A DNA stretch of 64,000 bases from Escherichia coli (GTDB lineage Bacteria; Pseudomonadota; Gammaproteobacteria; Enterobacterales; Enterobacteriaceae). Shown here in pieces: positions 52,550-55,170 of this stretch (its first letter is position 1; every line of letters starts with the position of its first letter). The stretch lies in the NCBI RefSeq assembly GCF_003334765.1, contig NZ_QOWT01000019.1; one strand, given 5' to 3'. The notes below the pieces were generated by a model, which saw nothing but the letters and a program-made list of their open reading frames with translations, was not told the DNA's origin and made no database searches. The position numbers and the translations under genes are program-made.

Positions 52550-53008
52550 TTAGCCACGACTACGTTGCACTTCCAGCCACCACTTCTCCAGCTCCGCGGC
52601 AAAGGCCTGGCGGTCACGTTGTGAAAGGCTATCTGGTCCGCCGGTCTGGATCCCACTGGCACGTAAGGTATCCATAAAATCGCGCATCGTCAGGCGCTCA
52701 CGAATGGTCGCTGGCGTGTAACGTTCGCCGCGCGGATTAAGCGCCGCAGCGCCTTTCTCGATGGCTTCAGCAGCCAAAGGTATATCTGCGGTGATCACCA
52801 AATCGCCCGCTTCACACTGCCGGACAATTTCGTTATCGGCAACGTCGAAACCTGCCGCGACGCGCAGCGTACGAATAAATCGCGATGGCGGCACGCGTAA
52901 ACTCTGGTTTGCTACCAGTACCAGCGGCATCTGCATACGTTCCGCCGCGCGATACAAAATCTCTTTAATTACATTGGGACACGCGTCGGCATCCACCCAA
53001 ATTGTCAT
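52550..53008 (-). CDS. yaiI: UPF0178 protein YaiI
   Basis: 152-aa product starting [24 protein letters not shown]; internal ATG of the 192-aa track ORF. Confidence 0.88.
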
Positions 53009-53127
53009 AAAGTCATCCTTTGTTGGGTAATCCTCTATTGTGTCGCGCTTTTGCCTTCCGGCATAGTTCTGTTTATGCTTCTGCCAGCGATTATCAAAAC
53101 AATGAATTTCACGGCAGGAGTGAGGCA

Positions 53128-53937
53128 ATGGAAAAGAAAATCGGTTTTATTGGCTGCGGCAATATGGGAAAAGCCATTCTCGGCGGTCTGATTGCCAGCG
53201 GTCAGGTGCTTCCAGGGCAAATCTGGGTATACACCCCCTCCCCGGATAAAGTCGCCGCCCTGCATGACCAGTTCGGCATCAACGCCGCAGAATCGGCGCA
53301 AGAAGTGGCGCAAATCGCCGACATCATTTTTGCTGCCGTTAAACCTGGCATCATGATTAAAGTGCTTAGCGAAATCACCTCCAGCCTGAATAAAGACTCT
53401 CTGGTCGTTTCTATTGCTGCAGGTGTCACGCTCGACCAGCTTGCCCGCGCGCTGGGCCATGACCGGAAAATTATCCGCGCCATGCCGAACACTCCCGCAC
53501 TGGTTAATGCCGGGATGACCTCCGTAACGCCAAACGCGCTGGTAACCCCAGAAGATACCGCTGATGTGCTGAATATTTTCCGCTGCTTTGGCGAAGCGGA
53601 AGTAATTGCTGAGCCGATGATCCACCCGGTGGTCGGTGTGAGCGGTTCTTCGCCAGCCTACGTATTTATGTTTATCGAAGCGATGGCCGACGCCGCCGTG
53701 CTGGGCGGGATGCCACGCGCCCAGGCGTATAAATTTGCCGCTCAGGCGGTAATGGGTTCCGCAAAAATGGTGCTGGAAACGGGAGAACATCCGGGGGCAC
53801 TGAAAGATATGGTCTGCTCACCGGGAGGCACCACCATTGAAGCGGTACGCGTACTGGAAGAGAAAGGCTTCCGTGCTGCAGTGATCGAAGCGATGACGAA
53901 GTGTATGGAAAAATCAGAAAAACTCAGCAAATCCTGA
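53128..53937 (+). CDS. proC: Pyrroline-5-carboxylate reductase
   Basis: 269-aa product starting [20 protein letters not shown] (NADPH-binding GxGxxG). Confidence 0.96.
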
Positions 53938-53945
53938 TGACTTTC

Positions 53946-53998
53946 GCCGGACGTCAGGCCGCCACTTCGGTGCGGTTACGTCCGGCTTTCTTTGCTTT
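53946..53998 (+). terminator. Candidate proC terminator hairpin embedded in the adrA 3' coding end
   Basis: GCCGGACGT ... ACGTCCGGC arms with a ~23-nt loop, then TTTCTTTGCTTTG; starts 9 nt after the proC stop. Confidence 0.4.
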
Positions 53999-55069
53999 GT
54001 AAAGCGCCAAATCTGCCGATTTCAACCACTCACGATAGTGACTCATTTGTGGGTTCAGCGGCGCAACCCCCACACTAATCCGTAAAGTTACCTGTGGCGT
54101 ATTCGGCAAACGTAATGTATTTAGCCCTTCATGCACCCGTAACATGGCGGTAATGGCGCTCTCAGCTGGCGTACCGGACATGATTACTGCAAACTCATCG
54201 CCGCCAAACCGACCAATCACATCGCTACCGCGCAGGGTAATTTGTAACTGTCGGGTAAGCGCCACAATCGCTTCATCGCCCACATCATGGCCCCAGGTAT
54301 CGTTGATGCTCTTGAAATGGTCGATATCGATAATCAGTAACGTTGCATCGCGATTATGCCGCCGACAGTTATCAAATTCATTGCGTAACATAGTTTCCCA
54401 ATGACGTCGGTTATACACGCCCGTCATGCCGTCGCGGGTACTCATGACCTGCAACCTGCGTTTATGTTCCGCCAGTTTGGTTGCCGTCTGGTAGCTGACC
54501 CAGCCAAACAGCAGAGGATAAATGACAATAATGGGAAGGGAGAGCCACCATTCCAGCGGCGCACTATTGAACGACACGGTAATGCCCGTCAGCTCGAGGG
54601 TGACAAGGCAGGAAACCACCATCAACACCAGACCCGCGACAAACAGACGGGGGCCGCCTGCCCCCATCAAATTCAGACACATAATCATCAACATCGCGGT
54701 GGAAGGCAGCACGTTTACGCCCATTACGCCTACCCACATTCCCGCTAATACTGCATCGGTTTTTAAGTTGTAAATTTCCCGGCTAAGCGGATCGACGGCC
54801 CTGCTCGCTATCTGCCAGGCTAAATGCGGCCAGACGAACGCCCAGCCGACCAACACCAGCCACCACCAGCCCGGCGGCGGGTGTGAAACCAGCGTTGAAG
54901 CAATCGGTAAGAACATGCCAGCCAGGCCAACCGCACGGGGTAGTCTGACGCGACGGGCGAAGCGCAGCCCGGACCGCTGATGTTCGTTTTGAGGAGTTAA
55001 AGGAGGTTCCTCCCCGTGCGCCGCCGCTTTTTTGAAAAAGTTTTCATCATTCATTATTTTTGGGAACAT
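53954..55069 (-). CDS. dgcC: Diguanylate cyclase DgcC (AdrA / YaiC)
   Basis: 371-aa ORF; N-terminal multi-TM domain; GGDEF active site RFGGDEFAV. Confidence 0.95.
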   Translation of the reverse strand: MFPKIMNDENFFKKAAAHGEEPPLTPQNEHQRSGLRFARRVRLPRAVGLAGMFLPIASTLVSHPPPGWWWLVLVGWAFVWPHLAWQIASRAVDPLSREIYNLKTDAVLAGMWVGVMGVNVLPSTAMLMIMCLNLMGAGGPRLFVAGLVLMVVSCLVTLELTGITVSFNSAPLEWWLSLPIIVIYPLLFGWVSYQTATKLAEHKRRLQVMSTRDGMTGVYNRRHWETMLRNEFDNCRRHNRDATLLIIDIDHFKSINDTWGHDVGDEAIVALTRQLQITLRGSDVIGRFGGDEFAVIMSGTPAESAITAMLRVHEGLNTLRLPNTPQVTLRISVGVAPLNPQMSHYREWLKSADLALYKAKKAGRNRTEVAA

Positions 55070-55170
55070 TCAGAAACAATTTTCCCAAATTATAGAGACG
55101 GAGCTAAAGGCAGAAGTATGATATTTCGGGTGAGCCATTTTCGTAGCTCACCCGTTAGCACTATCAGGTA

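Follow-up and report, generated by a model that had tools for sequence, protein, structure and literature searches.

A probable Rho-independent terminator of proC embedded in the last codons of the convergent adrA (dgcC) gene

Described 3'-end structures and the proC-adrA junction

Canonical Rho-independent terminators of Escherichia coli combine a G+C-rich stem-loop with an immediate U-rich tail just past the stop codon, and the element that follows proC resembles them: it has a stable G+C-rich stem-loop, a U-rich (not ideal) tract directly after the stem, and a position downstream of the gene on the proC sense strand. In one of two published datasets an RNA 3' end lies, as in such terminators, 6 nt past the stem, and exonucleases may nibble the tail. 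However, the proC stem is long (17 pairs, two bulges), its U tract UUUCUUUG is interrupted by C and G, all of the element but the 5' arm is antisense to the coding sequence of another gene, and a second mapped end falls inside the stem. Terminators overlapping the coding end of a convergent neighbour are routine in bacteria. In LB at OD 0.4, 99 ends were classed as both primary and antisense (Adams et al. 2021, PMC7815308), an 'antisense' class that includes ends within 50 bp outside a gene, so that not all 99 lie inside coding sequence; the proC end is itself listed in this dataset, as one of many.

Other described systems share some of these properties. Bidirectional terminators of convergent pairs (Ju et al. 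2019, cited in PMC7815308) have U's past the hairpin on both strands, whereas the E. coli proC hairpin is one-directional: the adrA strand past the hairpin reads GAAAGUCAUCAGG, which is no U tract, and adrA-sense read-through is bicyclomycin-sensitive (PMC7815308 data). One relative (locus L034) shows an A-run/T-run arrangement and looks like the bidirectional A-tract/hairpin/U-tract type. The proC element also shares with REP elements, and with further 3' stem-loops acting as blocks to PNPase and RNase II, a stable hairpin at the 3' end of a message, and the proC-side end at position 53992 depends in part on these two enzymes. Unlike REP elements, the proC element is not dispersed, has a U tract and has its sequence fixed by the codons of the neighbouring gene; a 63-nt query of the element occupies one place per genome (median 1 copy, highest 2, across 5,426 E. 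coli genomes), which rules out REP identity. RNA structures within coding sequences likewise show excess synonymous conservation limited to the paired codons, but the proC structure works in the opposite-strand transcript, for another gene. No curated family in Rfam 15 matches the element, the only hit in 53000-55300 being a chance-level miRNA elsewhere (E = 0.15), and searching the literature for a paper devoted to a proC/adrA terminator gave only noise, since 'proc' matches journal abbreviations.

The DNA analysed, referred to as the window, is a 64,000-nt stretch from E. coli, and the segment considered here is its aroL-yaiI-proC-adrA(dgcC/yaiC)-psiF-phoA region. A 2-kb query across proC and adrA finds a match in every one of 5,426 complete E. 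coli genomes; the annotation there names the products as pyrroline-5-carboxylate reductase (proC) and diguanylate cyclase AdrA (adrA). In the MG1655 record, dgcC occupies 403703-404818 (+) and proC 404835-405644 (-); MG1655 positions (m) are obtained from window positions (w) as m = 458772 - w. An earlier note on this DNA had claimed that proC and adrA/dgcC converge with 16 bp between their stops, and both the open reading frame (ORF) list and the annotation bear this out, with a 16-nt spacer at 53938-53953. The terminator-like hairpin that it had described is real, although its coordinates are here refined to 53946-53986, and the loop and 3' arm lie, as claimed, within the last 15 adrA codons (357-371), as does the T tract. 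The features are listed below in window coordinates.

53128-53937, + strand: proC coding sequence, 269 codons from ATG (MEKKIG...) plus stop, from the ORF list and RefSeq annotation; the start at 53128 is calculated from the annotated gene length of 810 nt
53935-53937, + strand: TGA stop codon of proC, which precedes the base of the hairpin by 8 nt, from the ORF list and RefSeq annotation
53938-53945, + strand: unpaired part of the spacer, varying freely between species and within E. coli
53946-53954, + strand: outer-stem 5' arm GCCGGACGT, non-coding up to its last base, with which the adrA stop triplet begins as read on the + strand; from the fold
53954-53956, - strand: adrA/dgcC stop codon (TGA on the - strand, = TCA), covering the last outer-stem pair and the CA bulge
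53954-55069, - strand: adrA/dgcC coding sequence, a MASE2 + GGDEF diguanylate cyclase, whose last 15 codons hold most of the probable proC terminator
53957-53977, + strand: inner stem-loop GGCCGC-C-AC UUCG GU-GCGGUU, antisense of adrA codons N365(part)-R-T-E-V-A-A371; from the fold
53978-53986, + strand: outer-stem 3' arm ACGTCCGGC, antisense of adrA A362-G363-R364, a conserved GGDEF C-terminal motif
53987-53999, + strand: U-rich tail UUUCUUUGCUUUG, antisense of adrA K358-A359-K360-K361 plus one base of Y357

The interpretation favoured here, with a probability of about 0.8, is that the element is an ordinary Rho-independent terminator of proC and a stem-loop protecting the 3' end of its message, embedded in adrA. 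Because only 16 bp separate the two stops, most of this terminator would consist of sequence antisense to the final 15 adrA codons.

Hairpin structure and published RNA 3' ends

The hairpin at 53946-53986 contains 17 pairs, two bulges and a UUCG loop at 53966-69. Its outer stem, GCCGGACGU/ACGUCCGGC, comprises 9 bp that join 53946-54 with 53978-86, the CA bulge at 53955-56 is part of the adrA stop codon, and the inner stem consists of 6+2 bp flanking one bulged C. Past the stem, the tail at 53987-53999 reads TTTCTTTGCTTTG (also given as UUUCUUUGCUUUG). The sole non-coding stretch of the hairpin is 53946-53953; the adrA stop and last ten codons lie under the hairpin, and four more codons under the U tract. 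The GGDEF Pfam match ends at residue 366 of the 371 residues of AdrA, so the conserved domain end (…LYKAKKAGRNR) contains the U tract and the outer 3' arm, and the short tail past it contains the greater part of the inner stem-loop.

In a 65-nt context the folding energy is -28.1 kcal/mol (z = -3.5), and 1 of 200 dinucleotide shuffles folds as well; the hairpin alone has an energy of -26.7 kcal/mol and its inner part alone -8.6 kcal/mol. A scan of both strands of the 64-kb window for single hairpins of -18 kcal/mol or stronger, abutting a tail with at least five T in 8, returned 15 terminator-like hits, a count in which neighbouring registers are entered separately, and the proC hairpin ranks strongest among them. 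The same scan on four dinucleotide-shuffled windows returned 1-8 hits. The proC hairpin is absent from the list produced by a simple consensus terminator scan of the window, because that scan disallows bulges and the outer stem seems to it a 23-nt loop; its silence was therefore dismissed as evidence of the hairpin's absence.

The earlier note had named the mapping of proC 3' ends as a check on the hairpin, and published ends do fall inside the element, at window positions 53981 (PMC7815308) and 53992 (PMC10667835), both of which are also inside adrA codons. The first comes from Term-seq in M63 glucose, where an end at 404791(-) has 24,962 reads and is classed 'primary: proC; antisense: dgcC' (Adams et al. 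2021, PMC7815308, supplementary file 1). It corresponds to 53981 (…GGUGCGGUUACGU), within the outer 3' arm and 4 nt past the inner hairpin, a position that is not predicted by release at the U tract. A coordinate offset was ruled out by checking the sequence column against sgrS and dapD: the column spans -50 to +10, and position 51 of 61 is the 3' end, although its caption speaks of 40 nt upstream. Another candidate explanation of 53981 is that the real terminator is the inner hairpin by itself (-8.6 kcal/mol, then UUACGU); because the outer stem and U tract are conserved, this was judged less likely than trimming or alternative release.

The second end, 404780(-), is listed in Table S3 of a SEnd-seq re-analysis, and Table S7 of that work takes it as an operon boundary (PMC10667835). 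It corresponds to 53992, in the U-rich tail, so that the dominant proC end differs by 11 nt between the two published datasets (53981 vs 53992). It makes up 51.7% of local 3' ends in the wild type, a share that falls to 0 when pnp is mutated and to 0.143 when rnb is mutated, and for both PNPase and RNase II it is placed in the class 'end in WT' (PMC10667835). The decrease in both mutants suggests that much of the 53992 end is made by trimming longer RNAs, and this partial dependence on PNPase and RNase II indicates that the hairpin may be an exonuclease barrier as well as a terminator. TERMITe (PMC12207403) holds no proC entry.

Bicyclomycin data place two Rho termination regions near the junction, one at 404394(-) with a score of 8.0, in the proC sense and antisense to dgcC, and one at 404769(+) with a score of 6.6, in the adrA-sense direction (PMC7815308); these windows are 800 nt wide, overlap proC itself, and neither resolve the hairpin site nor measure its read-through. 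The 404394(-) region shows that some proC-sense transcription passes the hairpin or begins beyond it. Together, the two regions are consistent with Rho clearing whatever passes the hairpin in both directions, and they also fit adrA lacking an intrinsic terminator of its own.

The mutant and Rho data bear on an alternative in which the hairpin is mainly a 3'-exonuclease barrier, with Rho stopping the proC RNA some hundreds of nt downstream in antisense adrA and with PNPase and RNase II trimming it back. The behaviour of the 404780 end (0.517 in the wild type, 0 in pnp and 0.143 in rnb; PMC10667835) is as this alternative expects. However, RNase II nibbling a few nt off truly terminated tails would yield an identical mutant signature; in Table S4, RNase II is seen to trim over distances of 3-9 nt (PMC10667835). 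Similarly, the dgcC-antisense Rho region at 404394(-), which scores 8.0 (PMC7815308), speaks for termination further downstream, but the 800-nt windows overlap proC and give no measure of read-through at the hairpin. A ribosome might disturb co-transcriptional folding of a hairpin only 8 nt from the proC stop, which would also favour a barrier over a terminator. On the other side, a U-rich tail lies directly past the hairpin in every species (4-6 U in 8 nt), and a pure barrier needs none. We consider a role mainly as a barrier unlikely; it is compatible with the terminator reading, from which it differs only in emphasis.

Conservation of the hairpin among relatives and codon constraint in adrA

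A single scan of GTDB species genomes with ProC returned 80 loci, and adrA is convergent to proC with a gap of 14-17 bp in 18 further loci (a second E. coli, E. albertii, S. enterica arizonae, eight Citrobacter, five Enterobacter including one MAG, Leclercia, Lelliottia and one unclassified Proteobacteria MAG). The same hairpin fold is present in all 18 loci with this tight junction. In the resulting alignment of 19 sequences, 18 of them distinct, 95.8% of the pair cells form standard pairs, a figure that drops to 26-40% if the 3' partners are shifted by 1-3 columns, and RNAalifold returns the same helix; the sequences are related, and these counts are not independent events. Seven pairs are invariant and seven change on one side only, and the sole pair changed on both sides, 53951:53981, occurs as A-U (11), G.U (4) and G-C (3). 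The covariation is therefore modest, and support for the helix comes mostly from wobble intermediates and conservation.

Three arguments are stronger than covariation. First, the majority-base fraction among the 18 distinct sequences is 0.90 in the non-coding 5' arm, compared with 0.45 in the eight adjacent spacer bases. Second, 45 wobble cells are G.U or U.G in the proC-sense RNA, and hence C.A mismatches in the adrA-sense RNA, vs 4 of the reverse kind, and the element pairs at 95.8% as proC-sense RNA (+) and at 82.4% as adrA-sense RNA (-). This asymmetry speaks for RNA rather than a DNA dyad, and for the transcript of proC rather than that of adrA. Third, the U's are kept, with 4-6 U in the first 8 nt past the stem in 18 of 18 distinct sequences and 6 U in E. 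coli. Of 5,427 E. coli records, 3,203 share an identical 63-nt element, and in three sampled variants the changes lie in the unpaired spacer or immediately beyond the T tract, with 0 in the stem; locus L002 has one change in the stem.

The adrA codons of L025 are altered (GGC GGC CGT), and its spacer arm is re-matched to them. In L034 the hairpin is rebuilt with a spacer arm fitting its own altered codons, and an A run and a T run flank it, so that it could act in both directions. The hairpin is missing in L028, L035, L029 and L051, the last of which has a proC-adrA gap of 2 bp and no longer has the spacer arm. In relatives where adrA does not lie downstream, such as L016 and L037, proC is followed by an ordinary intergenic hairpin. 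As a separate observation, REP-like palindromes occupy the proC-adrA spacer in L025, L028, L034 and L035.

The earlier note had expected excess synonymous conservation across the last 15 codons of adrA, and the expectation holds for the hairpin codons and fails for those of the T tract. In a codon alignment of 18 orthologues, synonymous identity over the last 10 codons is 0.80 vs a gene mean of 0.50, ranking 5 of 362 windows, and the only windows scoring higher lie within the first 15 codons. In the same alignment, synonymous identity is not raised at the T-tract codons (0.40-0.74), and the U-richness of the tail is attributed to the Lys codons. S. arizonae (L004), whose adrA is split between two frames, was left out of the codon analyses.

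Codon retention was then expressed relative to E. coli at same-residue positions, with totals summed from per-species rows. Across the 15 non-Escherichia species with a tight junction, the E. coli codon is kept at 113 of 134 positions (84%) in codons 362-371, and retention in the rest of the gene is 35-47%, or about 42% gene-wide. The codons of the inner stem-loop are nearly invariant among species with a 14-17 bp junction. Where adrA lies more than 60 bp from proC (L025, L028, L029, L034 and L035), the codon is kept at 17 of 39 positions (44%), which equals the background. In Phytobacter (L029), with adrA 1.66 kb away, the same residues R-T-E-V-A-A are encoded with five of the six codons changed, the hairpin is absent, and the E. 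coli codon is retained at 2 of 9 positions. The constraint on the hairpin codons is thus tied to adjacency to proC and is lost when the genes do not adjoin, which upholds the proposal that the C-terminal codons of adrA double as RNA structure.

The same comparisons weigh against a role of the structure for adrA itself, whether as an mRNA-stabilising 3' stem-loop or through an effect on translation or transcription termination, with the place after proC being incidental. The codon constraint is gone once adrA is apart from proC, though the tail residues stay the same (2 of 9 in L029), and 45 wobble cells pair in the proC-sense RNA only, against 4 in the adrA-sense RNA. The palindrome does fold in adrA-sense RNA (-24.9 kcal/mol, z -3.1), but GAAAGUCAUCAGG rather than a U tract follows it on that strand, and the adrA stop is inside the hairpin, which ribosomes must unwind to get there. 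The Rho region for adrA-sense RNA at 404769(+) adjoins the element (PMC7815308), and adrA-sense read-through into proC is limited by Rho, not by the hairpin. The L034 hairpin, with its A run and T run, could work both ways and is in keeping with a function for adrA; for the element as a whole, we regard such a function as very improbable.

Least credible is the absence of any RNA function, the palindrome being either a by-product of GGDEF C-terminus conservation and chance complementarity of the spacer, or a protein-bound DNA dyad. The 3' arm and T tract do lie in the strongly conserved YKAKxAGRN within the GGDEF Pfam match, so part of their nucleotide conservation is expected anyway, and both-sided change is seen at one pair only. 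However, protein conservation would not account for a non-coding 5' arm at 0.90 next to 8 nt at 0.45, nor for constrained synonymous sites that depend on proC adjacency. An equal fold arises in 1 of 200 shuffles, the wobble pairs point to RNA and against a DNA dyad, and RNA 3' ends map in the element.

Proposed mode of action and consequences of the overlap

In the terminator reading, RNA polymerase leaving proC would first copy the spacer arm and next the adrA tail in antisense, and the 17-pair hairpin would form in the nascent proC-sense RNA. The U-rich stretch, antisense of Lys-Ala-Lys-Lys, would weaken the RNA-DNA hybrid, with release a few nt into the stretch. Subsequently, 3'-to-5' exonucleases would trim the tail back to the hairpin, which would shield the proC message, and Rho would stop escaping transcripts further into antisense adrA. 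The data show the hairpin and its conservation, the bias towards one strand, the constraint on codons and where the mapped 3' ends lie; that release takes place at this site, beyond mere trimming, and how efficient termination is, we infer, as we do the evolutionary route. A ribosome terminating at the proC stop, 8 nt before the hairpin, could hinder the hairpin.

The evolutionary route may have begun with the protein sequence. The U tract (K-A-K-K/N) and the 3' arm (A-G-R) would have come free from the conserved end of the GGDEF domain, the spacer would have acquired a complementary 5' arm, and the five-residue tail T-E-V-A-A past the domain, together with R366, would have given the self-complementary inner stem-loop.

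The overlap also means that the proC mRNA tail is perfectly complementary to the last 36-46 nt of the adrA mRNA. A stable, hairpin-capped proC-sense tail, or read-through, could in principle exert cis-antisense control of adrA and so link a housekeeping proline gene to c-di-GMP and cellulose production, and read-through might be adjustable because the hairpin is 8 nt from the proC stop and a ribosome could hinder its folding; such control is quite improbable in our estimation. In a milder reading, the conserved T-E-V-A-A tail would have no protein function and would be dictated by the neighbour's terminator, with which the codon data are compatible.

The feature itself is already known, in that the proC transcript end is on record in published genome-wide tables. 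The junction is a clear example of dual constraint with no new mechanism, and its importance is small beyond that of a clean example. The contribution of the present analysis is the evolutionary footprint of the dual use, which shows how a terminator can be assembled where convergent genes leave almost no spacer. Measures of selection at the 3' end of adrA are accordingly not to be taken as protein-level constraint. In addition, synonymous recoding, C-terminal tagging or clean deletion of adrA/dgcC will damage the probable proC terminator, and such damage may alter proC mRNA stability and antisense transcription.

Ends of the convergent proC and adrA transcripts

The dominant proC 3' ends of two published datasets lie 11 nt apart, at 53981 in the Term-seq data of Adams et al. 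(PMC7815308) and at 53992 in the SEnd-seq re-analysis (PMC10667835). The Term-seq end, obtained in M63, falls inside the outer stem of the proC hairpin, on the U partner of the covarying A53951, and could arise from release after the inner hairpin, from trimming into the partly opened stem, or from endonucleolytic cleavage.

On the opposite strand, a mirror-image candidate of the proC element is found in the adrA-sense RNA beyond the adrA stop:

53900-53937 (-), hairpin candidate within the last codons of proC

It consists of a weak 4-bp hairpin (UCAG/CUGA) over the proC stop, extended to 5 bp in Citrobacter and Salmonella, followed by GUUUUUCUGAUUUUU, which is the antisense of proC Glu/Lys codons. 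For the adrA-sense RNA, Adams et al. (PMC7815308) report a Rho termination region at 404769(+) of MG1655 and give no Term-seq end; therefore, adrA seems to depend on Rho.

Variation of the proC-adrA junction

Among the proC loci of relatives recovered by a ProC scan of GTDB species genomes (L numbers), the junction varies in both width and structure. In Salmonella enterica subsp. arizonae CCUG 6322T (L004, 3328-4436), two reading frames share adrA, and the break near residue 260 is due to a frameshift or to an error in the assembly; neither the proC-proximal hairpin nor the U tract is disrupted at this locus. L044, L046, and L053, from Atlantibacter and from a strain that bears the label Citrobacter freundii M-21, have a junction of about 30 bp and a longer, altered AdrA tail (…TEVYTVR), and carry a different hairpin, GTCAGATGAGCG…CGCTCATCTGAC, which forms a perfect 13-14 bp stem across the adrA stop and is followed by no U tract on either strand. 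In L025, L028, L034, and L035, REP-like palindromes, such as GTAGGCCCGGTAAGCGTAGCGCCACCGGGC and GGTGGATGGCG…CCTATCCACCCTAC, have been inserted between the two genes, widening the spacer to 67-125 bp. Only 2 bp separate the two stops in Enterobacter sp. ENT03 (L051). Here, the spacer arm is absent, the inner stem is also broken, different codons encode the AdrA tail (T-E-I-A-A), and a longer T run (TTTTTTGG) is present.

Two E. coli records also stand out, NZ_CP049112.1 and NZ_CP195335.1. Strain WF5-5-T2 carries an insertion of an IS4-like IS421 within the proC-adrA stretch, and its annotation includes a second "pyrroline-5-carboxylate reductase family protein". A 43-kb plasmid harbors a 277-bp segment that matches the 5' part of adrA exactly, adjoins cynR and is annotated as a MASE2 domain protein.

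Other hairpins and the 5' end of adrA

Three further features lie on the minus strand:

55575-55604 (-), terminator-like hairpin downstream of phoA (-25.0 kcal/mol), followed by GTTTTTTT
54646-54668 (-), G+C-rich 9-bp hairpin GATGGGGGCAGGCGGCCCCCGTC followed by TGTTTGT, on the sense strand inside adrA
55025-55069 (-), first ~15 codons of adrA

The first ranks second in strength among the terminator-like hairpins of the window and presumably serves as the terminator of phoA, upstream of psiF. The second was picked up by the consensus terminator scan. The third holds the maximum of synonymous identity in adrA among 18 enterobacterial orthologues, reaching 0.88 at codons 1-10 against a gene mean of 0.50. 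This conservation hints that the adrA 5' end may be under RNA-level constraint, for example through a structure, an effect on translation initiation, or a regulator site.
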